A DNA stretch of 64,000 bases from Candidatus Woesearchaeota archaeon. GTDB taxonomy: Archaea; Nanobdellota; Nanobdellia; Woesearchaeales; GW2011-AR9. Shown here in pieces: positions 1,247 through 33,910 of this stretch (position 1 is the stretch's first letter; each line of letters begins with the position of its first letter). The stretch is from the NCBI GenBank assembly GCA_023265685.1, contig JAHFSP010000001.1, positions 54,975-118,974 on the forward strand, read 5' to 3'. The notes below the pieces were generated by a model that did no database searches, was not told where the DNA came from, and saw only the letters and a list, made by a program, of their open reading frames with translations. The position numbers and the translations under genes were made by a program.

Positions 1247-1921
1247 CTACTGAGCACGAGAAGACATGACTCGAGTAAAGGAACCGCCGCTGTCATTCCA
1301 GCCACCAATGAGGTTCGAGTCGCCATGACTCTTCACGAAGAGCGCCCTCGTTTCGCCAACGGGAAGATTGGGAACAAGATGCGTATTCATTGCTGTGTAA
1401 TTTGAACTTTGTCCTTCCCACTGGCGTTCAACGTATTGATCAAGTGTATTTCTTCCTGCAAATTGCCAGACTGGGTGGGCTTTTGCTTGAGCTTTTGTGA
1501 GGAGAGTGTTATATAACCCATCTGCCCCATTGAATTCTTGGACATTAATACCATCAGCAACGAGGGAATCGTACTCCACAATAATTAATGATGGACGTGC
1601 CCTTTCGTGTATGTGTAGTAACGCGTCAGAGATGAGGGAGATCTTGAAGAGACCGTTTGGTCCGTAGGTGATTGAGGAACAGCTGTCGTCCCATCTTGTG
1701 CCGAGGTCCCAGTTGTTGAGACGGGCGAGCATGATTTCTTCGACAGTGAGGGGACGATAGATCGCTTCACCGTCAAGAACGTGAGTAGGATGGAGAACGG
1801 ATAGTCCTGCTTGTTGGTCTTGGTAGCAAGCGGCTTGGAGAGAGTGGTAGCCTTGGGCCCAGGTTCTTGTTTGAGGCATGAGTTCGACTGATTTTCCAGT
1901 AAGATTTTCGAGAAGTGACAT
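1247..1921 (-). CDS. Paralog-family protein copy 1 (unknown function, 224 aa, no signal peptide)
   Basis: 224-aa ORF highly similar to the ORFs at 27520..28197 and 33230..33910. Shared motifs include WAQGYH, ITYGPNGLFKISL and AHPVWQFAG. The C-terminal ~30 aa are hypervariable. Confidence 0.8.
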   Translation of the reverse strand: MSLLENLTGKSVELMPQTRTWAQGYHSLQAACYQDQQAGLSVLHPTHVLDGEAIYRPLTVEEIMLARLNNWDLGTRWDDSCSSITYGPNGLFKISLISDALLHIHERARPSLIIVEYDSLVADGINVQEFNGADGLYNTLLTKAQAKAHPVWQFAGRNTLDQYVERQWEGQSSNYTAMNTHLVPNLPVGETRALFVKSHGDSNLIGGWNDSGGSFTRVMSSRAQ

Positions 1922-1947
1922 TTTACGAATATGTTTAGGGTGGAACT

Positions 1948-1957
1948 TTTTTATAAA
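1948..1957 (-). promoter_or_regulatory. TATA box (TTTTATAAA) ~27-36 nt upstream of the copy-1 start codon; conserved with copies 2 and 3
   Basis: The block tttataaa...tttgttgt...agttat recurs upstream of all three paralogs at the same spacing. The short distance to the start codon suggests a leaderless mRNA. Confidence 0.45.
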
Positions 1958-2155
1958 CTTTGTTGTCTTGTAGTTATTATTTATTTCTGGAATTTAGGAT
2001 ATAATCTTTGAATTATACCAGTTAAACAGTTATTGTGACAAGAAAAATGAGTAGCATAAAGGCTACGCTAAAGTTAGAGAATAACAGAATTATAAACACA
2101 GCTAGGTTCTAGAGAAACGCAATCTTTTTATAGAAGAATCTAAGAAACAGTATTT

Positions 2156-3661
2156 TTGATGAGCCTTTTGAACATATCTATTCTGAAAACAGATATTCTT
2201 TCGATGCGCGATTTTTCTCGTGAAGAGGTCGAAGAGATTATTCACAAAGCATTAGAATTAAAACGAACTAAAAAAACAAACACGCAAGACCTGAATTCTC
2301 TTAGTCATAATAAAATTCTTGCGTCATTATTTTTTGAGAATTCTACTCGTACACGAGAGAGTCATGAACTTGCGGCTACAAAGTTAGGTATGAACATTAT
2401 AGGGTTTGCGGGAACAGAAGGAACTTCTGTTAAGAAAGGCGAACCTTTGGCAGATACTGCACGTATGTATGCTGGTTTCGAGGCAGATGTGGTGGTCATG
2501 CGACATAATCTTGATGGGGCAGCACGCTTTGTTGCAGATGTGGTGAATGTTCCGGTGATTAACGCAGGTGATGGTGCGAATGCTCATCCAACTCAGACGC
2601 TGCTTGATCTGATGACGATTTTTGAGAAATTTGGGACGATTGATAATTTGAAAATTGCGATGGTGGGGGATCTCAAATATGGCCGCACAGTGCACTCTTT
2701 GTTGCAGGGATTGGCATTGTTTCGCAACGTAGAAATATGGGCTGTCGCACCCCCTGGTTTAGAAATGCCGGCTCATTGTATTGCTGAGTTTGAAGAGCGT
2801 ACTGGTACCAAAATTTTCTATACTCCTCATCTTCAAGAGGTATTGGATAAAGCCCAAGTGTTGTATATGACCAGAATTCAACGCGAACGTTTTCCAACTA
2901 GCGTAGAAGGAGAACATGAATTTAAGAAGGTGAGTGGGATGTATGAATTAACTTCTCAGGTACTCACACGAGCAAATCCTTCATTGTGTGTGATGCATCC
3001 ATTGCCACGCGTTAAACATAAACTTGAGATTAGTCTTGATGTTGATGCATCACCACGTGCATTATATTTTGAACAGGCTCGTAATGGAGTATTTATTCGA
3101 CAAATTTTGATTTCACACCTACTTGGAGTGCAGAAGACTAAAATTGAAAATAAAGAAGAAAATGGATTATGGCGGGAGCGATTTGTGAATGGACAAGATA
3201 AAAAAGAGAGTTATTTGTATCGGCTCGATAACGGCACGTTGATTGATCATCTTGAACCGGGAAAAGGCCCTCTCGTCCACTCTTTATTAGGATTAGAAAG
3301 ACTTCAAACTACAGTTGTTCAAGCTCTTAACATTGCAAGTACAAAATATGGGCGCAAAGATGTGTTAGCAATTCATAATATGCGCCTCACGCCACGTCAA
3401 TTATGGAAAATCGCTTTGGTAAGTGAACGTGCCTCAGTAAATTTTATTGAAGACAAACGAGTGGTTCAGAAGGGAACAGTGATATTGCCACGCGTACTTG
3501 AAAGACTGTTACTGTGCCAAAATGTAAATTGTGTGACTCGACCAGAACATTTTGAACATGCGCCAAGTAAATTTATTGTAGAACAAGATAAACCACTACG
3601 TTTGCGATGTTATTATTGTGAGCGGACATGTGGCCAGGAAGACGTGGAGTTGTTAAAGTAA
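2156..3661 (+). CDS. pyrBI: Aspartate carbamoyltransferase catalytic chain fused to regulatory chain (PyrB-PyrI fusion)
   Basis: The N-terminal ~300 aa carry ATCase motifs (STRTR, HPTQ, HPLP). The C-terminal ~160 aa carry a PyrI-like zinc domain (CxxxxC...CYYCERTC). The true start may be the internal Met at about 2204 (MRDFSREEVEEI). Confidence 0.85.
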   Translation: MMSLLNISILKTDILSMRDFSREEVEEIIHKALELKRTKKTNTQDLNSLSHNKILASLFFENSTRTRESHELAATKLGMNIIGFAGTEGTSVKKGEPLADTARMYAGFEADVVVMRHNLDGAARFVADVVNVPVINAGDGANAHPTQTLLDLMTIFEKFGTIDNLKIAMVGDLKYGRTVHSLLQGLALFRNVEIWAVAPPGLEMPAHCIAEFEERTGTKIFYTPHLQEVLDKAQVLYMTRIQRERFPTSVEGEHEFKKVSGMYELTSQVLTRANPSLCVMHPLPRVKHKLEISLDVDASPRALYFEQARNGVFIRQILISHLLGVQKTKIENKEENGLWRERFVNGQDKKESYLYRLDNGTLIDHLEPGKGPLVHSLLGLERLQTTVVQALNIASTKYGRKDVLAIHNMRLTPRQLWKIALVSERASVNFIEDKRVVQKGTVILPRVLERLLLCQNVNCVTRPEHFEHAPSKFIVEQDKPLRLRCYYCERTCGQEDVELLK

Positions 3662-3735
3662 AATAATTGAATTTGAAAGAAAGATATTATTCAATTATTG
3701 AGGAAATTTTATTTTAAATGAAGATTCTGGGGTTT

Positions 3736-4443
3736 CTATAGTCTTATTTTTGGTGTTGTTTTACTTACTATTGCTGAACTATATTGTCCCCCACAGAATT
3801 CTATGAGGAGATCTTCAATTTGACGAAGAAGAACACGTAGTTGTGGTGTTGTAACAGGAGCAAGAACCGGAATCTGGATAAGAATGGAAGTGGAATGGGC
3901 ATTAGGAAGAGTTTTTTTATTTTTCCAGAAATCAAGATGAGTTCCAAGAATATTTTTTTGATCACGATGATAGAGCGTTCCTTTGGCAAGAGTGAGAAGA
4001 AGACGAACTCGTTCTGTTCCGTTAGCAAGATCGTAGGTAATAGGTCCATGGATTTTTGATAGGTCATCTACGCTCATTGGAATGAGAGATTGAAGGCTTT
4101 GATATCGAACCAATTCGGTTGCGGTATCATTAGCACAAATGGAATGATGTTGCAAAACATGAGCAATGAGATTTTCAACTGCGGTTTGGTAATGGTGAGC
4201 ACGGGAACCAAATTCTTGCTGTGCAATAACCCAAGGGGCAATAAGGTCATGCGTTTTGATATTGTCGTTATGAAACGTGCGTTTAATGTAAAGACTTATT
4301 TCTCCAAGTAAATGGTGAGCTTGTTGAAGGTGTTCACGGTTATTAATCATCGTTGCTTTAAGAATAGCGATACGTAGAGTGGGATAGCGCTTGAAGACAT
4401 CAGGTTGAACGCGGATGTCTATTTGTTTTATTTTTGATACCAT
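3736..4443 (-). CDS. Conserved hypothetical protein, possibly a solo B3/4 (PheT-like) domain protein
   Basis: 235-aa ORF. Weak resemblance to stand-alone B3/4 domain proteins (IRVQPDVFKRYPTLRIAIL). Low certainty. Confidence 0.3.
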   Translation of the reverse strand: MVSKIKQIDIRVQPDVFKRYPTLRIAILKATMINNREHLQQAHHLLGEISLYIKRTFHNDNIKTHDLIAPWVIAQQEFGSRAHHYQTAVENLIAHVLQHHSICANDTATELVRYQSLQSLIPMSVDDLSKIHGPITYDLANGTERVRLLLTLAKGTLYHRDQKNILGTHLDFWKNKKTLPNAHSTSILIQIPVLAPVTTPQLRVLLRQIEDLLIEFCGGQYSSAIVSKTTPKIRL

Positions 4444-4452
4444 GGTTAGATT

Positions 4453-4803
4453 CTATTTTTTGTTGTATTTAGTAGTCTTCAAATTAGATTGTTTAGATAT
4501 TCTCCCAATCTGTTGTTGATAACGGTAATTACGTACACGTTGAACGAAACGACGAAACAATCCCATGCGTTGCTGTGATGAAGGTACACCAAAATGGCTA
4601 TTAAGATGTTCAAGGTTGTATCGGATATCTTCCAGAACGCGGGTGCGTTTATGATCAAAGTAGATTCGACTTAGAGTGAGAATAACATAAAGACCAAAAA
4701 TTCCCCCCACTAACACACTAATTTTACCAATGAGTGGACCAGTAATAGAGCTAAGAGGAATATTGGTTACTGAATTGAGAATTTCAGATTCGTTACCGAT
4801 CAT
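4453..4803 (-). CDS. Hypothetical membrane protein (one TM segment)
   Basis: 116-aa ORF with a hydrophobic stretch ITGPLIGKISVLVGGIFGLYVILTL. Confidence 0.4.
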   Translation of the reverse strand: MIGNESEILNSVTNIPLSSITGPLIGKISVLVGGIFGLYVILTLSRIYFDHKRTRVLEDIRYNLEHLNSHFGVPSSQQRMGLFRRFVQRVRNYRYQQQIGRISKQSNLKTTKYNKK

Positions 4804-4842
4804 AACTCATAGAGGTGAAAAAGACTATTTATATATTTCGTC

Positions 4843-6141
4843 ATGGGTGTTGGAATAGTTATTACGCGGGTTTATATAGTCAAAAATATTGACTGTAGAA
4901 AGAAAAGAGAAAGTAAGATGGTATCAGCATTACTCACGATTATTATTGCATTAACATTATCCTACATATTAGGCGAAATATCAAAAAAGATAGGATTACC
5001 GCGCATCGTAGGTAGTTTAGTTACAGGAATTCTTCTTACAATAGGGTATGTTAAACAAGTAGTACTCATTCCGGAAAATCAGGATTTCCTCTCATTACTT
5101 GCAGACTTAGGTGTTATTTTGCTCTTTTATTATATCGGTTTAGAGGCTAAATTTGAAGCCTTTGGCAAGAACGTTAAACGTTCTGTGATGATTTCGTTGT
5201 TTAACAGTCTTATTCCGTTTGCCATGGGATTCTTTGTCTGCCATTATCTGTTTGGATTCGATTTGGTTACAACGTTAGTTGTGAGTGTTGCTCTCTCAGT
5301 AAGTTCTCAAGCAGTGGCAATTGATATTTTGGATGAACTTAATTTCTTAAAATCAAAAATTGCCAATATGATCTTGTTTACGGTTGCCGTTGATGATATT
5401 ATTGAGATGGTCTTGATCACAGGGATGCTTTCTTTTTTGCACATTGCGATTACCAAAATGACATTATCAAGGTTGTGTATAGAGGTACTTATTTTTGTAG
5501 GGATCATGTTACTAATCCGATTTTGGATTTTACCGTGGGTACTAAAATTTTTCGAGAAAGAAAAATCAAGCACTGGTCGGTTTACGATCTCATTAATTGT
5601 TGTGTTAATCATTGCAAGTCTTGCAGAATATTTCTCAGTAGGGTATTTAATCGGCGCACTGATTGCAGGAATTATCACCAAACAAACTATCTATAAAGAT
5701 CCGAAAATTGCAAACTGGAAAGAACATGACGTGGCGCGGTCGATTCACATCATCGCGTTTGGATTCTTAATCCCTCTTTTCTTTGTCTGGGTGGGGAGCA
5801 ATATCGATCTAAGCATGGTGGGAGAGCATGTTGGATTTATTTTGATATTTACTCTAATTGCGACCGTAGGAACGGTTTTGGGAACAGCTTTAGCGGTGTA
5901 TCTTACCTCGGGAACATTTCATGAAGGATTAATTTTAGGATGGGGATTAAACGCCAAAGGAGATCTAGAGTTAGTTATTGCAAGCCTTTCTCTGAAAGCA
6001 TCATTAATTGAGCCATATATTTTTAGCGGAATTGTCATGATGTCATTATTAACAACCATTATTTCTCCGATTGTTTTTGCTCACATGATTAAGAGGAAGA
6101 TGGGTGTGGAACCAAAAGTTGTTGTAAAGAGGAAAGCGTAG
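4843..6141 (+). CDS. Monovalent cation:proton antiporter (CPA2/KefB-like Na+/H+ exchanger family)
   Basis: 432-aa polytopic membrane protein with CPA-type architecture. Probable true start is the Met at 4918 (MVSALLTIII). Confidence 0.7.
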   Translation: MGVGIVITRVYIVKNIDCRKKRESKMVSALLTIIIALTLSYILGEISKKIGLPRIVGSLVTGILLTIGYVKQVVLIPENQDFLSLLADLGVILLFYYIGLEAKFEAFGKNVKRSVMISLFNSLIPFAMGFFVCHYLFGFDLVTTLVVSVALSVSSQAVAIDILDELNFLKSKIANMILFTVAVDDIIEMVLITGMLSFLHIAITKMTLSRLCIEVLIFVGIMLLIRFWILPWVLKFFEKEKSSTGRFTISLIVVLIIASLAEYFSVGYLIGALIAGIITKQTIYKDPKIANWKEHDVARSIHIIAFGFLIPLFFVWVGSNIDLSMVGEHVGFILIFTLIATVGTVLGTALAVYLTSGTFHEGLILGWGLNAKGDLELVIASLSLKASLIEPYIFSGIVMMSLLTTIISPIVFAHMIKRKMGVEPKVVVKRKA

Positions 6142-6319
6142 ATTTTAGAGAGACTTATTTTGGATAGCAACTACATTTTCTACTGAACCTTATGCATGTA
6201 CATTTCCTTGAGGAGTGTGGTTGGAAAGAGTTTAGCAAGTTGGTGATTCTGCCATTAAATAAATTTTTTAATACATTCAGAGCAGATGGAACATTCTTAA
6301 ATATTGAGAAAGAAAAAGT

Positions 6320-6525
6320 AGCCCCGCGCGGACAGTCGAGCTTCGCTCTCGTTGGTTTCGTGAGCGAAACTATTCGAACCGCGGTCAAAGCCTCTCCTCA
6401 CTCTCTGTTCGGGATTTTCCTTACAGAAAGCTCCAAAGGGCTCTATGCTAGTCCACTACACTCCGCGAAGCTTTCAGGGCTTCTCCACGGGGCTGTGAAC
6501 TTGCACACAGCAGGGCTAATTTTCT
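6320..6525 (+). ncRNA. Candidate structured ncRNA (GC-rich island with terminal helix UAGCCC...GGGCUA); identity unresolved
   Basis: About 205 nt, markedly GC-rich in AT-rich intergenic DNA. 5' and 3' ends are complementary (tagccc/gggcta). Internal long-range complementarity exists (cgagcttcgc vs gcgaagcttt). The overlapping ORFs (6192..6533+, 6155..6388-) look non-protein-like. Strand is uncertain. Confidence 0.25.
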
Positions 6526-6608
6526 TTTTCTAGAGCTTGTTTATAAATATTTTGGACGCGCAGGGTTCATCTAGGAAATTAATGAGGGGCTAATTTTTTC
6601 TTACAAAA

Positions 6609-7205
6609 CTATTCGCACTTTTCTTCATAACTTGCAAGAGAAACGGTGAATTTTACTCGCTTCACAGTAGGATGGGTAATGATACTACTAGTTTCACCTT
6701 GTATTAGAGTAATAAGCGTTTCTTCGAGAATTTTACCTGCGTTTTTCTTGAGCAAAAGTAAAGGTACTCGCGGTTTAACTCCTTGACAATATCCGCCAAA
6801 CGTGTTGAGTTTCCATTCTAAAGCACCAGCAGCAGTATATGTCCCTTGACCTGGAGTAAGAGAATAGGTTTCATCATCACTGGTATGAAACGTTGTTTTG
6901 GTAAGGCGACATAGTTTAGCACAATTTGTTACATTGTTGACATCAGAAAGATGACGACACGACCCATCAATACATAATTTACTATCTTGACATTCACTAT
7001 TACGTTGACAAGCTACTAGGACAGGAGGTGCTATTTCAACTGCTTGGATAGTAGGGATAGGCGGGGTTACATTTTCTACTTGAATAGAGGGAGAAGTATC
7101 TGTAGTGGCTGAGGGCGCAGAGGACGAACGAGGTTTCGTGCAGGAGATAAGAAAGATACTTAGGGCAATGATAATAATAAGAGGTAGGTACTGTTTTGGT
7201 TTCAT
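6609..7205 (-). CDS. Secreted/lipoprotein-like Cys-rich protein
   Basis: N-terminal signal peptide followed by Cys (MKPKQYLPLIIIIALSIFLISC). Multiple cysteines, no recognisable domain. Confidence 0.5.
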   Translation of the reverse strand: MKPKQYLPLIIIIALSIFLISCTKPRSSSAPSATTDTSPSIQVENVTPPIPTIQAVEIAPPVLVACQRNSECQDSKLCIDGSCRHLSDVNNVTNCAKLCRLTKTTFHTSDDETYSLTPGQGTYTAAGALEWKLNTFGGYCQGVKPRVPLLLLKKNAGKILEETLITLIQGETSSIITHPTVKRVKFTVSLASYEEKCE

Positions 7206-7279
7206 ATGGGGAAATGAATAGACAATACTTTTCTTTCTTTGTAATAACTCTTATGTAGTAAAAATGAAAATTTTATAAA

Positions 7280-8764
7280 GTGCCCCATTATAAAAACGCC
7301 ATGGTAGTGGATCTTGCATCATTGGTTGTTCCTGGAACTGTGTATCAAGTGGCACTTTCGTATGATACTAATTTACAATTAAGCATTAGAGGAGGCCCTC
7401 AGCTTCTCCAAACCACTTTTTTTGAACCAACCTTAATACAAGGTTATTTGGCAGCGGAATTGGTCTCAAAGGCAATCGCAAAAGAAGCAGGCAAACCTAC
7501 TGCACCCGTAAATATTGAAACATTGAATAATTATGTTCGTATTGTTGGAGAATGGTATCAAAGTTGCGTTATAGATAAAAAATTTTTTAGAACCATTAAT
7601 CAAGGTCAATATGGTATCTATTTTCCGCAAGGAATTGAGATTTCACAAGAAATTGAAGATATTTTAGAACAAACAGCTTTGGATGCTGTTAATTCCATTC
7701 TTACATTAACTGCTCAATATCAAGTCCCTTTTTCTTCTGAAGAGATATTGTGTTTTCTTGGTGAGAACACGACTGAGGGACCGAGATTGTTGTTGGCAGG
7801 ATCACTCATTTGGGGAAGCAAGCCCTCTTTTGACGCGTTGCGATATGTTAGTGAACATACTGATGTTAAAACAATTCTAAGTGTTGCTAGTAATAGATAT
7901 GGGAACACGCTTGCCGAGCGTCTAAAAAATCAGGAATATGTAGCAGGTGTTGAGTCGAGTCTTAGTGAATTATTACAAGTAGCCGGAAATTTGGAAATTA
8001 TTACTCCAGAAGAAACTAAGACTACACTTGTGGTACGTTCTATAAATTTATTTATTAAAAGCAAAGTAAAACAAACTCTTCCTGAGGGTGCGATTGAACT
8101 ATTGGAGAAGATTTTCTTATCTACAGAACGGAACACCACAAATTTGAACCTGAAACAGTATTGCGCTCTTTTGAGAACGAATCTTACTGCGGGATTAATG
8201 TATTATTGTTTAATGAATCATGGAGATCCGGACCATAGTACGCAACATCGTCCATATTCTCTACGGCAACTCCAATTCGAGCTAGGTATGAAACATAGCG
8301 AAGTTTCAAGATTGAGTTTAGAGAGAAAACAATTACCTCTTCTCCCTATACCTCTTTCTTCGTCCCCCATTGTACCTCAAGTAGCCCCTCCTGTTGTGTC
8401 AGCACTTACGAAAGAAGTTGTGAGTCCACCAAATATGCCTCCTGAAACAAATACAACGCCTAAATGGGGCGTAGTTCGCTCACGTCGAGAATCAGTTGCG
8501 CCTCCTGAGTTGGCACCTCCAACAATATCATTTTTTGAATCAGAACGAGATGATGCGTTAAGAGGATTACTTCAGGGTTTTTTAGAAGAGGATTTAGGTG
8601 ATAATTTACCAAGAGATGGAACCGGAAATGATGGAACGGGAAATAATTCACCAAAAAATCTAGCAGAGACTCTAATACAGGGAAGATTAGAACCTAAAGC
8701 TAAACCAATATCTTCGCCACCAATTCCCGGTTTGGCAATATTCAAAAGAAAAAAAGATAAGTAA
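7280..8764 (+). CDS. Hypothetical protein with Pro-rich C-terminal region
   Basis: 494-aa ORF with a low-complexity P/S-rich tail (PIPLSSSPIVPQVAPPVV...). No known motifs recognised. Confidence 0.5.
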   Translation: MPHYKNAMVVDLASLVVPGTVYQVALSYDTNLQLSIRGGPQLLQTTFFEPTLIQGYLAAELVSKAIAKEAGKPTAPVNIETLNNYVRIVGEWYQSCVIDKKFFRTINQGQYGIYFPQGIEISQEIEDILEQTALDAVNSILTLTAQYQVPFSSEEILCFLGENTTEGPRLLLAGSLIWGSKPSFDALRYVSEHTDVKTILSVASNRYGNTLAERLKNQEYVAGVESSLSELLQVAGNLEIITPEETKTTLVVRSINLFIKSKVKQTLPEGAIELLEKIFLSTERNTTNLNLKQYCALLRTNLTAGLMYYCLMNHGDPDHSTQHRPYSLRQLQFELGMKHSEVSRLSLERKQLPLLPIPLSSSPIVPQVAPPVVSALTKEVVSPPNMPPETNTTPKWGVVRSRRESVAPPELAPPTISFFESERDDALRGLLQGFLEEDLGDNLPRDGTGNDGTGNNSPKNLAETLIQGRLEPKAKPISSPPIPGLAIFKRKKDK

Positions 8765-8829
8765 GTCGAGATAAGGTCAAGATAGAAATCAGCTAAATAT
8801 TTATAAAAGAGAATTCAGCTCTTCTCTAA

Positions 8830-11724
8830 ATGACACTAGATTGGAAACGTCTGCATGGGACATGGCAGCAGGAGTGGAGAGAAGATCGAGTTTTTCAAGT
8901 TGATGTTGAGGATTATTCTAAGAAAAAATACTTTATAACCACCCCATACCCATACATGAGTGGATTGTTGCATCTTGGTCATTTATTTACGTACATGGCT
9001 CCCGAGGCAACTGCGCGATTTAAACGAATGCAGGGGCATAACGTGTTGTTTAAGTTTGCATTTCACTGTACCGGAACGCCCATTGTTGCTGCAGCGCAGA
9101 GAGTTAAAGAGGGCGAACCAACACAAATTGCAACATTACATAAGATGGGGATCGCTCAAAGTGAAATACCAAAATTTTCTAACCCGGAATATTGGTGCGA
9201 GTATTTCCCAAAAGAAAATCTTAAAGATTTGCATAACCTGGGTTTTGTTATCGATGATCAATACACATTCAAAACAACGTATCTTGATCCAACATATGAT
9301 AAGTTTGTGACCTGGCAGTTTAATAAGTTACATCAACTTGGATATGTTACAAAAGGAAAACATCCCGTAATGTGGTGTCCCAAAGATAATGTTCCCGTAG
9401 GAGATCATGATCGTGCTGAGGGAGAAGGCGAGACACCGAAAGATTTTATTTGGATTAAATACCGCCTAAAACATTCCGATTTGATTTTAATGACGGGAAC
9501 AACACGCCCTGATGCCCTATTAGGCCAAACTAATTTATGGATTGATCCTCATGGAAAGTATAAAGTTGTTGAGATTCATAGTGTAAATGACCAAACTGAA
9601 AAATGGGTTGTAGGAGAAGCGGTTATTCAAAAGATTTGCGATCAATGTGATCCCAAAGTCAAAATTCTACGGGATATTGATGTTCACGAACTAATTGGAA
9701 AATGGGTACAGGGACCAGTTGTTGGTGGTGCAAGAGAGGAATTATATACCTTGCCTGCAGGATTTATTGATTCCAAAGTAGGGTCTGGGCTAGTTTATTC
9801 TGCTTTGGAAGATCCCGTAGATTTATTCGAGTTACGTAAAATTCAAAGTGATAAAAAATTATTAGATTCGTTCCATCTTGACCATGCAACTGTTACAAAA
9901 TTAAAACCGATTCCGATTATTAGTGTTGAAGAGATGGGCGAGGATTTAGGAGATTCTATCGGAAAAGAGTTCAATATTACTTCTGCAGATCAAAAAGAAA
10001 AATTAGAAGAAGCAAAAGGCGAACTTAATCGTCGAGTCTATCGTAAAGGAATAATGCGCGAGAGTTGCGGTAAATATGGTGGCATGAACATTCCTACATG
10101 TCAAGAGGCAATCAAAAAAGACCTATTACAAGAAGGGGATGCAGTCATGTTTTGGGAACCTACAGGAAAAGTTGTGTGTCGTTGTTTAACACCATGTATC
10201 GTAAAGGTTGTGAGTAATCAATGGTTCTTAGAATATGATAATCCTGAATGGAAAAAAATTACACATGAATGTTTGGATATGTTAACCCTTTATCCAGAAA
10301 AAATACGTAAGCAATTTGATTATGTTTTAGATTGGTTACAGCATTGGGCGTGTACACGTGAGTTTGGTCTAGGAACGAAATTACCCTGGGATCATGAATG
10401 GGTGATTGAATCATTGAGTGATTCGACGTTACAAATGGCCTATTGTACAATTGCCAAGTACCTTGAGCATCCTAAAGAATATGGATTGCATGTAGAACAT
10501 CTTAATGATGCGTTTTTTGATTATGTCTTTTTAGGGCAAGGATCAGTTGCTGAGGTAGAAAAATCAACGAAAATTACACGAGTGATGGTTGAGAAGATGC
10601 GACATGATTTTGAGTATTGGTATCCCGTTGATTTTCGAAATTCAGCGAAAGATTTGTTGCAAAATCACCTTGCGTTTTGTCTGTTTAATCATACTGCATT
10701 GTTTCCTAAAAAGCATTGGCCGAAAGCGTATGTGTTAAATGGGCGAATCATGGTTAATAATGAGAAGATGTCGAAATCGAAAGGTAACTTTTTTACAATT
10801 CGAGAATTGTATGAGAAATATACTGCAGACATCATTCGTTTGACGGCAGCGAATGCTGGTGAGGGAGTTGAGGATGCAAATTATGATCTGACATTTTTAG
10901 AAACGGCTCGAAACAAACTCGAAGATGTGTATGAATTTGCATGTGGGCATTATAACAAAGGACGTAGTGGAGCTGAGATGCTGAGTATTGATGTCTGGTT
11001 TGAGAATATGATTAATACCTGTGTTGAGGCCGCGACACAAAGTATGGAGAATATGTTGTTTAAATCAGCAGTACAAGCTGGATTTATGAATATGCAACGA
11101 CATTTGAAGTGGTATACGCGTCGTACTCATGGGAATTATAACAAGAAAGTCATTAATCATTTTATTGAAACACAACTAAAATTACTGGTTCCGTTTACAC
11201 CTCATTTCTGTGAAGAAACTTGGCATACTATTGGGAAAAAAACATATATCTCCAACGAGAGTTGGCCCGTTGCAGGACATATTGATTCTAGGGCAATGCT
11301 GACTGAAGAACTTTTGGAACAGACGATGAGCGATATTAGTGAAGTGTTGAAGTTGGCGAAAACGGAAAAGGTTGAGACGGTAACATTATTTGTTGCAGAT
11401 ACCTGGAAATATGATGCGTTTAAGAAAATTGGAGAAGAGTTAGAGAGAACCCGCGAGTTCAAAGAGATTATGGGCTCGATGATGAAAGAAGAAGAGTTCA
11501 AGAAATATTCTGGGGAACTGACGAAGTTGATTCCAAAATTCGTTAAAGTAGGATCCGTAGGAACTGCAACTTCCCAACCATTCGAATTGAAAGTGTTATA
11601 TGATGCTGTCACGTTCTTAGAAAGAGAATTTTCCTGTTCTATTGTAGTGGTACGTGGAGAAGACAATACTCATGCGAAAGCTCGAGGAGCAATGCCGGGA
11701 AAAGTAGGAATTTTGGTAGAGTAG
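8830..11724 (+). CDS. leuS: Leucyl-tRNA synthetase, archaeal/eukaryal type
   Basis: 964 aa with a class I HIGH-type motif (MSGLLHLGHLFTY) and a KMSKS motif (NNEKMSKSKGN). Length and architecture match LeuRS. Confidence 0.9.
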   Translation: MTLDWKRLHGTWQQEWREDRVFQVDVEDYSKKKYFITTPYPYMSGLLHLGHLFTYMAPEATARFKRMQGHNVLFKFAFHCTGTPIVAAAQRVKEGEPTQIATLHKMGIAQSEIPKFSNPEYWCEYFPKENLKDLHNLGFVIDDQYTFKTTYLDPTYDKFVTWQFNKLHQLGYVTKGKHPVMWCPKDNVPVGDHDRAEGEGETPKDFIWIKYRLKHSDLILMTGTTRPDALLGQTNLWIDPHGKYKVVEIHSVNDQTEKWVVGEAVIQKICDQCDPKVKILRDIDVHELIGKWVQGPVVGGAREELYTLPAGFIDSKVGSGLVYSALEDPVDLFELRKIQSDKKLLDSFHLDHATVTKLKPIPIISVEEMGEDLGDSIGKEFNITSADQKEKLEEAKGELNRRVYRKGIMRESCGKYGGMNIPTCQEAIKKDLLQEGDAVMFWEPTGKVVCRCLTPCIVKVVSNQWFLEYDNPEWKKITHECLDMLTLYPEKIRKQFDYVLDWLQHWACTREFGLGTKLPWDHEWVIESLSDSTLQMAYCTIAKYLEHPKEYGLHVEHLNDAFFDYVFLGQGSVAEVEKSTKITRVMVEKMRHDFEYWYPVDFRNSAKDLLQNHLAFCLFNHTALFPKKHWPKAYVLNGRIMVNNEKMSKSKGNFFTIRELYEKYTADIIRLTAANAGEGVEDANYDLTFLETARNKLEDVYEFACGHYNKGRSGAEMLSIDVWFENMINTCVEAATQSMENMLFKSAVQAGFMNMQRHLKWYTRRTHGNYNKKVINHFIETQLKLLVPFTPHFCEETWHTIGKKTYISNESWPVAGHIDSRAMLTEELLEQTMSDISEVLKLAKTEKVETVTLFVADTWKYDAFKKIGEELERTREFKEIMGSMMKEEEFKKYSGELTKLIPKFVKVGSVGTATSQPFELKVLYDAVTFLEREFSCSIVVVRGEDNTHAKARGAMPGKVGILVE

Positions 11725-11791
11725 AATTCTTTTAGATGGTTGTGTGAGAAGAGAGTAGGAGGGAGACAGAGAGAGAAATTAACTGACGAGA

Positions 11792-12907
11792 CTAAATCTT
11801 TCGAGCCCACTCACACATTAATTTTGGGACGGCGAAGCGATCGGAAGATACACGAGATAAACCATAATAAACTATTGATTCCACATCACGACTGGTGTGA
11901 TAAATTAATGGCCAAATCGGCGATTGCTCGATTTGAGTCATGACTCGTTCTGGTAAATCAGAAGCGTTTTGGTTATAAGTTATTAAATCCTGGAAATGAT
12001 AATTGCAATTAAATGGATGATGCCCAATAATAGTTTCTGCTAGGATTATTGTTGACGCATAGATGTTTCCTGTTGGATCAAAACCACCACTAGCCTGTTG
12101 AAGAGACATATATACGGGAGTTCCAAAGATAATAGGTATATCGGAGATAGTACCTGCTTTAAGACGAGCATGAAGATCATTTATTCTAAAATATTCTGGG
12201 AGATGAGTACCAAGATCGATGCCTAATGAACAACCAGCGTCAACGACTGAAAGACTATTTTCTGTAATGATTATGTTTGATGGTTTAATGTCTCCGTGCT
12301 CAATATTATTTTTTACAAGATATTTTGATACGACGCCTAATCCGTAGGCTACTCTTTGAATGAGATTATGACGCAGATCATTGCGCAATTGATATTGGGG
12401 TGATTTTAATCTTGTTAGGATATATTCTAGCGTTTTACCTTTTATTTCTTGCATTTCTAGATAGGCTACAAGATTTCCTGTTTCGCTTAACGCAAGACCA
12501 TGATCATATAAATGAGGAAAATAGCGTGAACCAGTTATTCCCTCACTCTGGTCTTGAGAGATTTTTGCTAAAACTGCAATTTCGTTCGCAGCACCATGTA
12601 CTCTGATCCGAGTGGGAGAATCTAATTGGTACATCTCGTCCCCTACAAATACAATGCCCTCTCTGCTATCAATGTCAGATTCTGTATAGACCACGTTCAG
12701 AAATGGATTAGTGTTATCTGGTGTGAGTTTTCCAAGAGACCATATTTTGATTATTCGGTCTGGTCGAGCAGGGTCAATAACACGAGCAATACTTCCCTGC
12801 GTTCCACCTAAATTAGTGGGTTTAATTTGTAGTAAAATCTCTAAAGTGGGAGGACCAATAATCGTTGGTTCAAAAGGATCGAAAGGAGATTGAGTTTGAG
12901 TGGTCAT
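11792..12907 (-). CDS. Eukaryotic-like Ser/Thr protein kinase-like protein (DFG replaced by DAG; possibly a pseudokinase)
   Basis: Catalytic-loop motif HGDIKPSNII, VAIK-like RIIKIW, and APE-like GTPVYMS. DAG sits where DFG is expected. Confidence 0.6.
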   Translation of the reverse strand: MTTQTQSPFDPFEPTIIGPPTLEILLQIKPTNLGGTQGSIARVIDPARPDRIIKIWSLGKLTPDNTNPFLNVVYTESDIDSREGIVFVGDEMYQLDSPTRIRVHGAANEIAVLAKISQDQSEGITGSRYFPHLYDHGLALSETGNLVAYLEMQEIKGKTLEYILTRLKSPQYQLRNDLRHNLIQRVAYGLGVVSKYLVKNNIEHGDIKPSNIIITENSLSVVDAGCSLGIDLGTHLPEYFRINDLHARLKAGTISDIPIIFGTPVYMSLQQASGGFDPTGNIYASTIILAETIIGHHPFNCNYHFQDLITYNQNASDLPERVMTQIEQSPIWPLIYHTSRDVESIVYYGLSRVSSDRFAVPKLMCEWARKI

Positions 12908-12989
12908 GTTTAAATATTAATATTTTTAGATTGATTTTAATCGATAATTATTTTGATCTACATTTGAACCACTTTATTTTTTAGAGAAA

Positions 12990-14228
12990 TTATTTTTGCA
13001 AATCCATTCTCAAGTACATACCTACATCCACTACTAATCTGGAAGGAACAGGAGAACTGATAGGTGAATAGTTTCTAGGTGTGGGCGATGCTTCCATTGA
13101 AGTGAGTCCTCGACGAGCAGAAGTAAGCTGAGAACAGTACATATCTGGCACTTGTTGTAATCTTTCCGATAGGCCCATAATAACATTGTACAAATTATCT
13201 GGTAAACAACGTCGAGAAGGTTCTTTTACTAATGCACTCTGAAGAGGTTCTATGGCCGGACTGATGATCTGTTTTGCAACCGCTTGGTCTAATCCATACA
13301 CTTGAGCGCTTACTACAGGGAGTTCACGCACGAGCCGGTTCATCATAGGGTTGTTATAAAAAGCTAGTGCTTCGGATACTCTTTCACTTTCATTATAGGC
13401 TGTTTGGTTGGGTAATCGTCCGGCATCTCTGGCGAATGCTCTATTAAAATCAGTTTTTGTTAAAAGTCCATACACAATGGTCGCCATGCTATATACATCA
13501 CTTGCAGGACCAACGAGACGCGGATTATGAATCTGTTCTGGAGAAGCGTTCCCTATCGATCCTGTTGCTACATCGAGTAATGCACGTCGTTTGAAAAACT
13601 CCTCAACTGTGGGATCATACGTTCTAATTATTCCAAGAAGAGATGAACTTTGACCAGATGAACCTTGACCAATCAGAGCTAGTCCGAAATCACCAACAAC
13701 GGCACCGTTTTCATCAATGAAAATGTTTGGTTTCTTAAGATCACGATGTGTTACACCTGCGGTTGCAAGATACGGCAATACGCAAGCAGCTTGGGCAAGA
13801 TAGGTCATTGCTTGTTGCAGAGAAATTTCTCCCATCTTAAATTGGTTGTGGAGATTTTCTCCATGATATGGAAACTGGACTGCGAGAGCGGGACTTTCTC
13901 CTATGGCTATTTCTTCTATACCTTTTACTTTCACAATGCGAGGATGACCTAATGCTTGTCCTAAAACAGCCTCTGCTTTGAGTATAATATGATTAGAAGC
14001 CACTCTACCTACGGGAGGATTTTGAATTTTCACAACAAAACCATCTGATCCTTGGCGATACACTTGCCCTTCTCCTCCATACGCCAAGATATCTTGGGGG
14101 GTGTACTCTCTACCAAACGCAGTAAATGATACTCCCTGGGGCACTTGGGCATAGGGGTTGGATTGGCTAGGCAAACTCATTTTATTATAAAGTATATACT
14201 TAATACTTAAAATGCGGGGCGAGACCAT
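12990..14228 (-). CDS. Hanks-type Ser/Thr protein kinase
   Basis: Motifs YGGEGQVY (Gly loop), VVK, HRDLKKPN, DFG and DVYSMATIVYGLL. Confidence 0.8.
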   Translation of the reverse strand: MVSPRILSIKYILYNKMSLPSQSNPYAQVPQGVSFTAFGREYTPQDILAYGGEGQVYRQGSDGFVVKIQNPPVGRVASNHIILKAEAVLGQALGHPRIVKVKGIEEIAIGESPALAVQFPYHGENLHNQFKMGEISLQQAMTYLAQAACVLPYLATAGVTHRDLKKPNIFIDENGAVVGDFGLALIGQGSSGQSSSLLGIIRTYDPTVEEFFKRRALLDVATGSIGNASPEQIHNPRLVGPASDVYSMATIVYGLLTKTDFNRAFARDAGRLPNQTAYNESERVSEALAFYNNPMMNRLVRELPVVSAQVYGLDQAVAKQIISPAIEPLQSALVKEPSRRCLPDNLYNVIMGLSERLQQVPDMYCSQLTSARRGLTSMEASPTPRNYSPISSPVPSRLVVDVGMYLRMDLQK

Positions 14229-26093: not shown

Positions 26094-26717
26094 ATGAACT
26101 TTAATCTAGCTCAATTTTTAGAAACACCTAAATTAAAATATGAATTTCTCCGTCTTGCTCTTGATGGAAGTAGTAGAGATAGAATTTGTTTACAAAATGA
26201 TTTTGACAACTCTTTCGTTTGCTATAATCCTGAAAATGCATGTGCAGCAGATAGAATAATCATGAGTTCTTATCCACTTTTTCATTATCCTTTTGCTTTT
26301 ATGCACACACCACGCTGTGCTGAAACTGATTTTAATGTTGCTGATTTTTTAAATCTTACAAGTTATGAGGAAGATACTCAAGAAAATCTTGGTTTTAAGT
26401 TTGCTCCTTTAGGAGTTGTAGTACGAGAGGCAAGAGATGTGAAAGTTGGAATGAAAGATCACTTACCATTGTTAGTTATTTCATTATATCGTTCTTCAAG
26501 AGACAATCCACTTGATCCAGAACTGATTTGCGATTTACTTCAGGATAAGATTAATGTTCCACCTTCTTATGTTCTGAAGTCGTTGACGCGAGTACACGTT
26601 GTATATGATTTAATTACAAAACGTTTCTCGGGTAATGCTTTTTACACTCCTGCTGGGGCACATAGCAGTGTTCAGTATCCAGCAACGTTTAGAGATGTTT
26701 GTGAGAGAATGAAGTAG
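26094..26717 (+). CDS. Hypothetical protein; its 3' end is duplicated downstream of the TA cassette
   Basis: 207-aa ORF. The last ~80 nt plus ~35 nt of 3' flank recur at 27240..27365. Confidence 0.5.
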   Translation: MNFNLAQFLETPKLKYEFLRLALDGSSRDRICLQNDFDNSFVCYNPENACAADRIIMSSYPLFHYPFAFMHTPRCAETDFNVADFLNLTSYEEDTQENLGFKFAPLGVVVREARDVKVGMKDHLPLLVISLYRSSRDNPLDPELICDLLQDKINVPPSYVLKSLTRVHVVYDLITKRFSGNAFYTPAGAHSSVQYPATFRDVCERMK

Positions 26718-26750
26718 AGGGAGATTAATTTTTTTGAGGTTTGATGAGTT
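26636..26750 (+). repeat. Direct repeat, left copy (3' end of gene 26094..26717 plus flank)
   Basis: About 80% identical to 27240..27365. The two copies bracket the RelE/antitoxin pair. Confidence 0.65.
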
Positions 26751-26777: not shown

Positions 26778-27032
26778 CTAATAGACTCTTTCTCTGTTAT
26801 CAACTTTTACAACAACAATTCTTTTTTCTTCATGATTAACTCTGTAAAGAGCCCGATAATCGCCTATTCTAATCCTAAATGTTGGTTCACTATAACCCTG
26901 AACTCTCTTTGAATCATGTGGAACCGGATTAAGAGCTAATTCCCCTAGTTTGTTAACAATCCTATCAAAAAGAATCTTTTCACATTTCTTAAGAAACTTA
27001 TCGGCCTGTTTATCAAGCGTTACTTCGAACAT
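26778..27032 (-). CDS. relE: RelE/ParE-superfamily toxin (mRNA interferase)
   Basis: C-terminal RIRIGDYRALYRVNHEEKRIVVVKVDNRERVY is a classic RelE motif. 84 aa. Overlaps the upstream antitoxin ORF by 20 nt. Confidence 0.8.
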   Translation of the reverse strand: MFEVTLDKQADKFLKKCEKILFDRIVNKLGELALNPVPHDSKRVQGYSEPTFRIRIGDYRALYRVNHEEKRIVVVKVDNRERVY

Positions 27033-27213
27033 TCTTAAGTTCCTCTAAAGAAATCAGTTTTCCAGCTTTCTCGTTTACAATACTCTCATCAATAAGTTTT
27101 TTTTCTTCTGCTGTGAGGATCGTATCTACATCTATCATGTGGGCTTTAATGTAATGAAGTTCATCCTTGATGTTCTTGAGTTCATCCATGATTAGTTCAG
27201 TTTCTGTTGCCAT
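27013..27213 (-). CDS. Putative antitoxin of the RelE pair
   Basis: 66-aa acidic helical protein immediately upstream of and overlapping relE. Confidence 0.5.
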   Translation of the reverse strand: MATETELIMDELKNIKDELHYIKAHMIDVDTILTAEEKKLIDESIVNEKAGKLISLEELKNVRSNA

Positions 27214-27239
27214 ATTTCACTGTAAGTAGAGGTAATTTA

Positions 27240-27365
27240 TATGGTTTTTGGCTATTTTCTCCTGCTGGAGCACATAGTAATATTCAATATCCAGCGACAT
27301 TTAGAAATGTTTGTGAAAGAGTAAAGTAGAAAAGAGGGTGAGTTATTTCTGAGGTTTTGAGTTGT
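27240..27365 (+). repeat. Direct repeat, right copy (degenerate copy of 26636..26750)
   Basis: Contains ...tcctgctggagcacatagtaatattcaatatccagcgacatttagaaatgtttgtgaaagagtaaagtag, matching the C-terminal coding sequence and stop of gene 26094..26717. Confidence 0.65.
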
Positions 27366-27519
27366 TATGATTGCTCACTGTTTTCACAGCGTCTCAAGGT
27401 AGTTGTAGAATAATGGAAGAGGATAAATTATTTTTTGAGTATTGGAAAGTAGGGGAAAATGTTGCGCGCGAGAATCTGAAGAGTTGTCCACTTTTTTGAC
27501 AGGCTTCGCCTGTGGCGCT

Positions 27520-28197
27520 CTACTCAGCGCGGATAGACACGACCCGAGCAAAGGAACCGCAGTCGTAGAGGTCGTAATTACCACCGAGGCTCGAATCGTA
27601 TTGATCGTTCACGAAGAGCGCCCTCATTTCACCAACTTGAGGATTGGAAACAAGATGCGTATTCATTGCGGTGTAATTTGAATTTTGTCCTTCCCACTGG
27701 CGATCAACGTAGGGATCAAGTGCATTTCCTCCTGCAAATTGCCAGACTGGGTGGGCTTTTGCTTGAGACTTTGTGAGTGGAGTGTCGTATATCCCGTCTG
27801 CTCTGTTGAATTCTCTGACGTTGACATCGTCAGCGATGAGAGAATCATACTCCATACGAGTGGATGTTTGATTGAATTCTTGTGGTAGGCGTAGTAACGC
27901 ATCGGAGACAAGAGAGATTTTGAAGAGGCCGTTTGGCCCATAGGTGATTGCAGAACAGCTGTCATTCCATTTTTGACCGAGGTCCCAGTTGCCGATACGG
28001 GCGAGCATGTTTTCTTCGACGGTGAGAGGACGGTAGATTGTTTTGCCGTCAAGAACATGAGTAGGGTGTTGTACAGTTCTTCCTGCTTGTTCGTCGGCTT
28101 TGCAGACGTCTTGGAGAGCGTGATAGCCTTGGGCCCAGGTTTTGGTTTGTGGCATGAGCTGAACGGTTTGTCCAGTAAGTTTTTCGAGGAATGACAT
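27520..28197 (-). CDS. Paralog-family protein copy 2 (225 aa)
   Basis: Same family as 1247..1921 and 33230..33910. The 5' ~235 nt are near-identical to copy 3. Confidence 0.8.
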   Translation of the reverse strand: MSFLEKLTGQTVQLMPQTKTWAQGYHALQDVCKADEQAGRTVQHPTHVLDGKTIYRPLTVEENMLARIGNWDLGQKWNDSCSAITYGPNGLFKISLVSDALLRLPQEFNQTSTRMEYDSLIADDVNVREFNRADGIYDTPLTKSQAKAHPVWQFAGGNALDPYVDRQWEGQNSNYTAMNTHLVSNPQVGEMRALFVNDQYDSSLGGNYDLYDCGSFARVVSIRAE

Positions 28198-28221: not shown

Positions 28222-28229
28222 TTTATAAA
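28222..28229 (-). promoter_or_regulatory. TATA box ~25 nt upstream of the copy-2 start
   Basis: tttataaa, with the same downstream tttgttgttactttaaagttat block as at copy 3. Confidence 0.45.
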
Positions 28230-30722: not shown

Positions 30723-30798
30723 TTTTGGAGGGCATTAGTTTTTAGTAGTAACTTGTTAGGAGTAAATTTTATAAAAGAGGGATGATTTTAGACTTCTT

Positions 30799-31320: not shown

Positions 31321-31343
31321 TGTAGATTAATGTATAACTCATT

Positions 31344-32084: not shown

Positions 32085-32151
32085 GGGAAGAGATGGGTGA
32101 GCGGTGTTTATAAAAGTCGCTGAAGAGAAGTTAAAAATTATGCATTTAAAA

Positions 32152-32538
32152 TCACGCTGCCAACGCTTCTTGGTTTTTAATCTCTTGTTCTACTGATTTG
32201 TATAATTCATGAATCTTACGGATAATTTCTGGTTTCTGTTTTTTCTGAGATAGGCCAATATAGGCTTTGAGTAATTTGATTTCTTGGAGTTCGCGTTGCA
32301 TGATTTCGAGAAATTTTTTCTTTCTTTCTGCAGAAAGATTTCGTGCAATAACATTTTCTGCCAAAACACTTTTTTCCAGACGACTTAGATATTCGTTAAT
32401 GCTATTTGCTAATTTGATTGTGTCCTTATCTTTTTCTCCTACTTCGTTGAGAACAAACAGCAAGTCTTCAATTTGTGTGGCAATAACAGCATACACTTTC
32501 CTGATTTTTTCCACGTATAATTGTACTGCTTCTGCCAT
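32152..32538 (-). CDS. Hypothetical coiled-coil protein
   Basis: 128 aa, heptad-rich, no known motif. Confidence 0.35.
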   Translation of the reverse strand: MAEAVQLYVEKIRKVYAVIATQIEDLLFVLNEVGEKDKDTIKLANSINEYLSRLEKSVLAENVIARNLSAERKKKFLEIMQRELQEIKLLKAYIGLSQKKQKPEIIRKIHELYKSVEQEIKNQEALAA

Positions 32539-32539
32539 T

Positions 32540-33133
32540 TTATTTCTCTTTACCTAAGATGTCAGCAGTACTTGCACCTAAGACTGCGAGAAGTTCATTT
32601 GTTGCAATAAGACGATATATCTGTGGAAGAGGAGTGGTAAAGTCTATGAAGCCAAAGACAAAGAGAGTTACTACGATGACTCCTGTTGAAATCAGGAAAA
32701 TGGTAGCAACTCGCAAAGGGATAAACCGGAATATTTTGATTTCTTTGACTTTGCGAAATCCTGAATAATACATGAAGAAGAATGCGACCACTAACGAGAG
32801 AACATAGAGGGTTGTGGCACGATTAACAGATACCCTGTCAGCGATCTCAACGCCATAAAAAAATGCGAAGTGACCAACTGTCCCGATTAATGCACCAATG
32901 GTACTTCGGGTGATGTCGGAACGAGTGATTTTCGTTAATGGATGACTGCTTTTCTCATTTTCAATTTCTTTTTTTATGGTCTCGAGTTCTTGGATTTCTT
33001 GAAGCTGGAGTCGTTCGACGTTTTCTTCTTCTATGAGGAGATCTTTTGGGGTTGGTCTTATTGAAGACAGTCTCGATTTTGGGAATTTAGAACTAGATGA
33101 TTGGGTCTTGGATGGTTTGCGTTTCTTTGCCAC
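32540..33133 (-). CDS. Hypothetical membrane protein
   Basis: 197 aa. Basic N-terminus, acidic coiled region, and several C-terminal TM helices. Confidence 0.45.
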   Translation of the reverse strand: MAKKRKPSKTQSSSSKFPKSRLSSIRPTPKDLLIEEENVERLQLQEIQELETIKKEIENEKSSHPLTKITRSDITRSTIGALIGTVGHFAFFYGVEIADRVSVNRATTLYVLSLVVAFFFMYYSGFRKVKEIKIFRFIPLRVATIFLISTGVIVVTLFVFGFIDFTTPLPQIYRLIATNELLAVLGASTADILGKEK

Positions 33134-33229
33134 GAAGGTAACGAAAGAAAAAGAGAATATAAGTCTTTCGAGTTGAGTGATTATTATGTTATTTTTAGAG
33201 TCTTAGAGAGAAGTCAAGCTTGTGAGATA

Positions 33230-33910
33230 CTAGCGAGCGCGGATGGGCACGACCCGAGCAAAGGAACCGTTGACGTAGGGGTCATAATTCTTACAACCAA
33301 AGTTCGAGCTGTTATGATTGCCCACGCAGAGCGCTCTCGTTTCACCAACTTGAGGATTGGAAAAAAGACATGTGCCCATTGCTGCGTAATCTGAATTTTT
33401 TCCTTGCCACTGGCGTTCAACGTATTGATCAAGTGCATTTCCTGCTGCGAATTGCCAGACTGGATGGGCTTTTGCTTGGGACTTTGTGAGTGGAGTGTCG
33501 TATATCCCGTCTGCTCTGTTGAATTCTCTGACATTGACACCATCAGCGACGAGAGAATCATACCCTATATTGAGAGATAGTTTATTGAAGTCTCGGGGTA
33601 GACGCAGAAGAGCATCAGAGATGAGAGAGATTTTGATACGACCGTTGGGTCCATAGGTGATTGCAGAACAGCTGTCATTCCATTTTTGACCGAGGTCCCA
33701 GTTGCCGATACGGGCGAGCATGTTTTCTTCGACGGTGAGAGGACGGTAGATTGTTTTGCCGTCAAGAACATGAGTAGGGTGTTGTACAGTTCTTCCTGCT
33801 TGTTCGTCGGCTTTGCAGACGTCTTGGAGAGCGTGATAGCCTTGGGCCCAGGTTTTGGTTTGTGGCATGAGCTGAACGGTTTGTCGAGTAAGTGTTTCGA
33901 GAAGTGACAT
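33230..33910 (-). CDS. Paralog-family protein copy 3 (226 aa)
   Basis: Same family as copies 1 and 2. N-terminal half is near-identical to copy 2 at the nucleotide level. Confidence 0.8.
   Translation of the reverse strand: MSLLETLTRQTVQLMPQTKTWAQGYHALQDVCKADEQAGRTVQHPTHVLDGKTIYRPLTVEENMLARIGNWDLGQKWNDSCSAITYGPNGRIKISLISDALLRLPRDFNKLSLNIGYDSLVADGVNVREFNRADGIYDTPLTKSQAKAHPVWQFAAGNALDQYVERQWQGKNSDYAAMGTCLFSNPQVGETRALCVGNHNSSNFGCKNYDPYVNGSFARVVPIRAR

Follow-up and report, generated by a model that had tools for sequence, protein, structure and literature searches.

Dispersed AvpA-like paralogues of a woesearchaeal archaeon as probable orphaned or frozen targets of a diversity-generating retroelement

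AvpA, the variable protein of a diversity-generating retroelement (DGR) of Nanoarchaeota, has a divergent C-type-lectin (CLec) fold and carries a variable repeat (VR) of 23-27 residues near its C-terminus; its conserved motifs are GxxVVVYAH on beta3, HPxxxPFxG on insert 4 and RFxGV on beta5, the last being encoded by the initiation of mutagenic homing (IMH) sequence, and AvpA homologues outside any DGR also exist (PMC5006420). The remote targets of a DGR can lie more than 100 kb from the cassette (PMC5758913). Here we describe three dispersed paralogous genes, copies A, B and C, in a 64,000-nt stretch (the window) of contig JAHFSP010000001.1 of a Candidatus Woesearchaeota archaeon; together with its extensions L001, L005 and L006, ~77 kb of the 131-kb contig were inspected. 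AvpA-like DGR variable proteins are already known as a kind, and what is new here is an unannotated subfamily with three dispersed intact copies and a pseudogene, copy D, and a DGR footprint without a DGR in ~77 kb, accompanied by a relic of a template repeat (TR) and by static VRs. With a probability of about 0.6, A, B and C, together with the deleted copy D, are orphaned or frozen DGR targets, the three intact copies being soluble AvpA-type CLec-fold putative ligand-binding proteins.

Three paralogues with a predicted AvpA-type fold

The genes and the promoter element of the first are as follows (ORF, open reading frame):

1247..1921, minus strand: copy A, predicted AvpA-like C-type-lectin-fold variable protein of 224 aa (ORF)
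27520..28197, minus strand: copy B, predicted AvpA-like variable protein of 225 aa (ORF), the copy used for modelling
33230..33910, minus strand: copy C, predicted AvpA-like variable protein of 226 aa (ORF)
1950..1957, minus strand: TTTATAAA, TATA-like box 28 nt upstream of the ATG of A (sequence reading)

The three ORFs coincide exactly with those that the initial annotation had described as paralogues aligning over their full length. End to end, they share 64-82% of their amino acids and 77-87% of their DNA; copy A is 68% identical to B and 64% to C at the protein level, and C is 82% identical to B, a value that reaches 94% across the first 100 residues. The TTTATAAA octamer is present also at 28222-28229, before B, and at 33936-33943, before C, and stands 24-28 nt upstream of each ATG. 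None of the three proteins contains a hydrophobic segment (the highest Kyte-Doolittle 19-residue mean is 0.86), in agreement with the earlier view that a signal peptide is absent.

The division into a conserved core and a hypervariable C-terminal tail, which had been proposed from the outset together with a codon-aligned comparison of the two, is not an artefact of alignment. The N-terminal 100 residues are 74-94% identical among the paralogues, and with a ratio of nonsynonymous to synonymous substitutions (dN/dS) of ~0.2 (Nei-Gojobori) the cores are evidently under purifying selection; in the tail, at residues ~197-214, identity is 16-33%, dN/dS is 1.1-2.0 and the copies differ by indels of 1-2 codons.

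Searches of A, B and C against Pfam and NCBIfam gave no match, and a Pfam search of 33 family members likewise found none. The sole structural match of a model of copy B was AvpA (PDB 5IOO), a protein of C-type-lectin fold. Searching the sequences of the PDB, whether with two profiles or with one relative, brought up no AvpA match at E <= 10, and the kinship of the window proteins to AvpA is drawn from the structure comparison and from a correspondence of motifs. By eye, the window motifs ITYGPNG, AHPVW and GSFARV follow one another in the same order as GxxVVVYAH, HPxxxPFxG and RFxGV of AvpA, and they are better read as scaffold counterparts of these motifs, a judgement made by eye and with no residue-level alignment. 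As modelled, the window proteins have an AvpA-type CLec fold, and the family, which had been taken as unknown in kind, belongs to the AvpA-like DGR variable proteins, its relatives including some with TR/VR pairs and reverse transcriptases (RTs).

When 5.8 billion protein clusters were searched by a word index, the only close sequences were the three window proteins and a syntenic homologue, P0003. More distantly, phmmer over 1.84 billion representatives recovered 163 relatives at 25-48% identity, many with N-terminal extensions, whose common C-terminal pattern is LRALFV-xx-L-xxx-S-x-A-x-G-xxx-L-xxx-GSFLRVAP. A profile search added 359 clusters, of which those with a named source are all 'hypothetical' except for one mislabelled quinone reductase. 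The named sources of the relatives are metagenome-assembled genomes (MAGs) of Pacearchaeota, Woesearchaeota and Nanoarchaeota, plus one labelled Paceibacterota. The closest relative outside the window group is P0188 (L008 10001-11485; 494 aa, 50% identity), which is a fusion with an N-terminal domain of ~270 aa and whose contig is compositionally similar (GC 42%, tetranucleotide r 0.95); no TR or RT was found within 13 kb of it. Another locus, L014 7010-10139, carries three tandem family paralogues (329, 329 and 349 aa) and no RVT_1 gene.

Adenine-mutagenesis footprint, template relic and static tails

At five independent loci of relatives, a second version of the homologous tail, the TR, lies 370-1000 nt downstream. 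The TR-to-VR changes that fall at adenines are:

L004, Woesearchaeota MAG: 14/14
L003, Pacearchaeota MAG: 13/21
L009, ENA metagenome contig: 8/11
L016, GCA_023245385.1: 14/19
L017, JGI 3300076213: 22/25

Judged by these repeat pairs, five relatives of the window proteins are demonstrable DGR targets. In L016 and L017, which have two tandem targets each, an RVT_1 reverse transcriptase follows directly after the TR. A GC-rich hairpin stands after the VR, and not after the TR, in L003, L004, L016 and L017; it fits the hairpin by which DGRs reportedly recognize their targets. In L004 (10926-13317), the DGR RT ORF keeps ~90 N-terminal RT-like residues and then diverges, and the truncated RT adjoins an opposite-strand gene of 385 aa that is tyrosine recombinase-like by eye; apparently this is a cassette in decay whose TR/VR pair has kept its full adenine specificity.

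In a working element of this family, the RNA of an AAY-rich TR would be copied by the DGR reverse transcriptase, which would misread adenines, and the resulting cDNA would replace the VR, with the first two bases of each AAY codon randomized and the scaffold codons fixed. In translation, the L016 and L017 TRs read NNLNNNSNANGNNNLNNN, in which AAY codons are broken up by scaffold codons; the consensus expected of a template is GTGAACAATCATAACAACTCGAACCTCAATGGTAAT...GGTTCCTTTGCTCGGGTCGTG. The window tails were placed in register with the TRs of the relatives, and the 'N' positions so defined amount to 48 codons over A, B, C and D. The VR homologues, with the number of codons ending in C or T (NNY), are:

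1265..1348, minus strand: VR homologue of A, variable codons 1286-1333, then the conserved IMH-like GGTTCCTTTACTCGAGTCATG (codon table, 10/12 NNY)
27538..27624, minus strand: VR homologue of B, variable codons 27559-27609, then the IMH-like GGTTCCTTTGCTCGGGTCGTG (12/12 NNY)
33248..33337, minus strand: VR homologue of C, variable codons 33269-33322, then the IMH-like 21-mer as in B (12/12 NNY)

The scaffold positions (H/Q, S, L/F, G and L/P) are kept in the window tails, and the variation sits at the 'N' positions. There, NNY codons occupy 45 of the 48 places, against 60% elsewhere in the genes (binomial p 1.1e-7, Fisher p 2.8e-7), and an excess of C/T-ending codons is what adenine mutagenesis of AAY predicts. 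The richness of the tail in Asn, Tyr, Gly, Ser and Asp codons had already been recorded in the initial annotation, and DGR adenine mutagenesis, which was not named there, can explain this bias. The three exceptions (AAG, TGG and AGG), the indels and a few third-position transitions cannot arise from adenine mutagenesis and call for ordinary mutation after the last homing event. The VRs are 16, 17, 18 and 17 codons long in A, B, C and D, respectively.

Downstream of the variable codons, G-S-F-(A/T)-R-V is invariant, and the same layout is found across the family alignments. In B, C and D the 21-mer GGTTCCTTTGCTCGGGTCGTG is identical, third codon positions included; exact-match scans for it yielded one unrelated chance match (L019) in JGI metagenomes and none in IMG/VR. 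Beyond it, two of the copies have hairpins:

1226..1257, minus strand: two short hairpins, GTGCTC-AGTA-GAGCAC across the stop of A and ATAGAC-AAA-GCCTAT after it (sequence reading)
27499..27530, minus strand: two short hairpins, GCGCT-GAGTAG-AGCGC across the stop of B and ACAGGC-GAA-GCCTGT after it (sequence reading)

Each of the two hairpins shows one compensatory pair between A and B, including a synonymous CGT/CGC change in the 5' arm that is paired with a noncoding A/G change in the 3' arm. Copies C and D have neither hairpin. The hairpins of A and B could equally be structures of transcript 3' ends.

A TR was sought with every VR as query (sensitive blastn) and found neither in the window nor in the flanking L001, L005 and L006. 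In the same sequences, the L016 and L017 RTs and the L004 RT fragment had no match by tblastn, and RVT_1 was absent from a Pfam scan of the RT-sized ORFs of the window, all of which were assigned to other families. What was detected beside copy B is the following:

27342..27378, minus strand: GTGAGCAATCATAACAACTCAAAACCTCAGAAATAAC, probable decayed TR relic of 37 nt, 141-178 nt past the stop of B (local alignment)

Aligned with the VR of C, the putative relic scores 17 (z 6.8), and with the AAY-restored VR it scores 22 (z 7.9), with 19/20 identities at its start; in each case 0/300 shuffles reached the score. It occupies the position of the TR in L003, L004, L016 and L017, and nothing comparable is present downstream of A and C. 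Directly after it, at 26780-27215 (minus strand), lie a RelE/ParE-type toxin and a small upstream antitoxin ORF, and a direct repeat of ~105 nt (26647-26750 and 27259-27363; 78% identity), which duplicates the 3' end of a convergent 207-aa ORF at 26094-26717, flanks this module and overlaps the relic. The module looks like an insertion with target duplication, and the RelE/ParE pair and its flanking repeat together indicate that the interval holding the RT in relatives has been remodelled here.

The finding of three copies stood inside the window, where tblastn detected no family copy besides A, B and C, but had missed an internally deleted fourth copy just outside. Copy D lies ~3 kb past the window start (L001/L002 13044-13240), between a CutA1 gene and a 162-aa ORF, in two ENA contigs that are 99.98-100% identical to window positions 1-11921. 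What remains of it is the promoter box, ~26 codons from the start and the last ~40, which bear the VR, with an out-of-frame joint at a CTC(C)AAG repeat; it is recognizable as a frameshifted deletion pseudogene with its own distinct NNY-rich tail. We rejected D as a TR because AAY accounts for only 4/12 of its variable codons and, where it departs from A, B and C, the changes show no specificity for adenine. A 225-aa ORF past the window end (L005 2148-2825) was likewise rejected as a family member.

For each of A, B and C, the VR has exactly the same bases in 2-4 independent ENA/Logan assemblies, the independence of the compared contigs being indicated by occasional single-nucleotide differences from the window. 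Copy A is identical in three ENA assemblies (the identical protein is encoded in three ENA metagenome contigs), and its VR is identical in L001 and L002; the VR of B is identical in L020 (Logan) and L021 (ENA), and that of C in L012 (ENA, a contig from 3 samples) and L013 (Logan). Among 5.8 billion clustered proteins there is no near-identical variant of A, B or C, each of their 90% clusters having one member. The identity of the VRs across assemblies argues against active diversification. The ENA contigs end within the near-identical 5' halves of B and C, and these breaks look like a repeat effect and not like a sign of heterogeneity.

P0003 stands at the B locus in another sample, where the 3' end and the 207-aa neighbour are identical to the window; the protein is only 59% identical over residues 101-196, and the 228-aa neighbour differs. 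P0003 offers no clear evidence of ongoing hypervariation at B: its divergence extends through the core and fits a diverged strain or mosaic allele better than a DGR variant. The N-terminal 100 residues of B, C and P0003 are 89-94% identical (B-C dS 0.16), whereas the C-terminal halves are 59-77% identical, a contrast that points to mosaic alleles or to gene conversion in the 5' halves.

Explanations for the differing tails

Under the orphaned-target explanation that we favour, the differing tails of A, B, C and D would be products of DGR diversification, as their signature suggests. The cassette beside B would have decayed, leaving the 37-nt relic and, in the place where relatives have the RT, a RelE/ParE module. 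The VRs would now be fixed, and the proteins most likely persist as a small repertoire of putative binders with fixed, differing specificities. It is possible, and we put it forward only tentatively, that this repertoire, frozen after loss of the retroelement, consists of dispersed genes, each with a promoter of its own and a different DGR-written specificity kept under purifying selection, and that recombination between paralogues is now the source of variation, as the homogenized N-terminal halves, the divergent ligand-binding halves and the divergent P0003 allele at B would suggest.

Several points weigh against the favoured explanation. The confidence of the structural model was moderate, and its parts of low predicted local distance difference test score are the VR and the termini. 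The putative TR relic spans only 37 nt and contains two indels, and its best score was obtained against a template reconstructed in this analysis. The stasis of the tails is weak evidence, because minority variants do not show in consensus assemblies and a single study is the probable source of the samples. Copies A and B retain the IMH-like 21-mer and hairpins with compensatory changes and could still be competent targets; moreover, because DGR targets more than 100 kb away are documented and ~77 of 131 kb were seen, an RT and a TR may lie elsewhere. A further point comes from a second variable segment, which the initial annotation had also missed:

1574..1615, minus strand: second fast-evolving patch, residues 103-116 in A, with equivalents at 27850-27891 (B) and 33563-33604 (C) (dN/dS)

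Here dN is 0.47-1.87 against a dS of 0.35-0.60, giving a dN/dS of ~0.9-3.1. The codons of this patch are not AAY-like, and DGR mutagenesis therefore does not explain it; it may be a loop beside the VR surface.

The alternative that survives best, although we consider it unlikely, is that the copies are active remote targets, diversified in trans by a distant cassette (RT, accessory gene and AAY-rich TR) whose rare or conditional homing yields a static consensus. The documented reach of DGRs beyond 100 kb (PMC5758913) and the inspection of ~77 of the 131 kb leave room for such a cassette. Copies A and B keep the IMH-like 21-mer and, after the VR, hairpins in which changes compensate each other, and the 21-nt sequence is the same in B, C and D even at third codon positions. 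Against this, the VRs of all three copies are identical across several assemblies, the VR lengths of 16, 17, 18 and 17 codons in A, B, C and D could not be produced from one TR, and the VRs contain non-NNY codons and third-position transitions; in addition, the hairpins are missing from C and D, the putative TR beside B is decayed, and 5.8 billion clustered proteins include no near-identical VR variants.

We think it improbable that A, B and C are ordinary lineage-specific paralogues whose surface loops diverged by point mutation, diversifying selection and inter-paralogue recombination, with no retroelement ever involved. Such a history would accommodate two separate fast patches, of which the one at residues 103-116 lacks the AAY/NNY pattern, the gene conversion or mosaicism indicated by N-terminal halves of 89-94% identity and C-terminal halves of 59-77% in B, C and P0003, and the lack of an RT or TR in ~77 kb. 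Against it, the NNY excess (45/48) falls exactly at the AAY positions of the relatives' TRs, the conserved scaffold residues match the register of these TRs, a TR-like relic lies at the expected place, a putatively homologous hairpin follows the VR, and five relatives are demonstrable DGR targets. Finally, of the two fold guesses in the initial annotation the lectin-like one agrees with the model, which matches AvpA only, and the other, a papain-like or NlpC/P60 Cys/His hydrolase with a disordered tail appendage, can be set aside as highly implausible: Cys81 and His149 are conserved among the window copies, but there is no Pfam/NCBIfam or structural match, Cys81 lies outside the invariant or near-invariant columns of a DPANN-rich alignment, His149 is replaced by Asp in P0003, and the Cys/His motifs are better taken as AvpA-like scaffold elements.

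Genome context and comparison with known systems

Archaeal markers in the genome include Topo VI, a Hef-like helicase-nuclease and a NOG1-like GTPase, and L7Ae, S28e and L24e are encoded on the syntenic ERZ27297570 contig. A 501-aa ORF at 2156-3661 (plus strand) is a PyrB-PyrI fusion of the catalytic and regulatory chains of aspartate carbamoyltransferase, with the Pfam domains OTCace_N, OTCace, PyrI and PyrI_C in the identical L001 gene. Two adjacent genes for eukaryotic-type Ser/Thr protein kinases (371 and 412 aa) lie at 11792-14228 (minus strand), and a protein with a GGDEF diguanylate-cyclase domain (E 3e-31) is encoded at 56082-57122 (minus strand); GGDEF proteins are uncommon in archaea. 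The GC skew changes sign at ~52000-56000: it is positive over 1-54 kb except at 20-22 kb and then -0.16 to -0.37, with the cumulative maximum near 53-54 kb. This switch could be a replication origin or terminus, or a mere change of gene orientation.

The analysis gives an identity and a mechanism, both to be read at the strength stated above, to a family that has no name in any HMM library (Pfam, NCBIfam), and it widens the range of AvpA-like DGR variable proteins to include a lineage in which the ~77 kb inspected carry genes for PyrB-PyrI, a PurK-family protein and CarA. Such genes would not be expected in the smallest DPANN genomes. If the favoured explanation holds, the locus offers a picture of DGR targets after the retroelement has been lost or has moved, with differing NNY-biased tails, a TR relic, retained post-VR hairpins and cores still under purifying selection. 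Orphaned targets of this sort would escape RT-centred DGR finders, and the test for NNY codons in register with a template is a practical means of recognizing them. If instead the distant-cassette alternative is true, dispersed cytoplasmic targets would still be rewritten in trans.

Among known systems, the window proteins resemble TvpA of Treponema denticola and Mtd of a Bordetella phage in being, as predicted here, CLec-fold variable proteins diversified by adenine mutagenesis, and Treponema denticola shows that one cassette can serve several dispersed targets. TvpA and Mtd differ in that they belong to the FGE-type CLec subclass, have longer VRs and demonstrated activity, are bacterial or phage proteins, and are surface-exposed, as lipoprotein or phage tail-fibre proteins.

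AvpA offers a further comparison. It and the window proteins are single-domain proteins of ~225-260 aa with a CLec fold (predicted for the window proteins), a VR of ~20-27 residues near the C-terminus and, after it, an IMH-encoded non-variant beta5 (RFxGV in AvpA, GSFARV here); the HPxxxPFxG and AHPVW-type motifs correspond by eye, and the window proteins have no signal peptide. In contrast, AvpA is only 16-19% identical to the window proteins and was not detected by sequence search against the PDB; it has a 46-residue extension, whereas the window proteins end 12 residues after the VR; and the window has no adjacent RT or TR, with three dispersed copies and a pseudogene.

The L016 and L017 cassettes differ from the window in having an AAY-rich TR and an RVT_1 RT, of which the window has only the putative 37-nt relic. 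With these cassettes the window shares a homologous target (28-31% identity, HMM profile E down to 1e-146), the VR scaffold RALFV-xx-x-xxx-S-x-x-x-G-xxx-L-xxx-(G/S)(S/R)F, the presence of more than one target per locus and, in copies A and B, a GC-rich hairpin after the VR.

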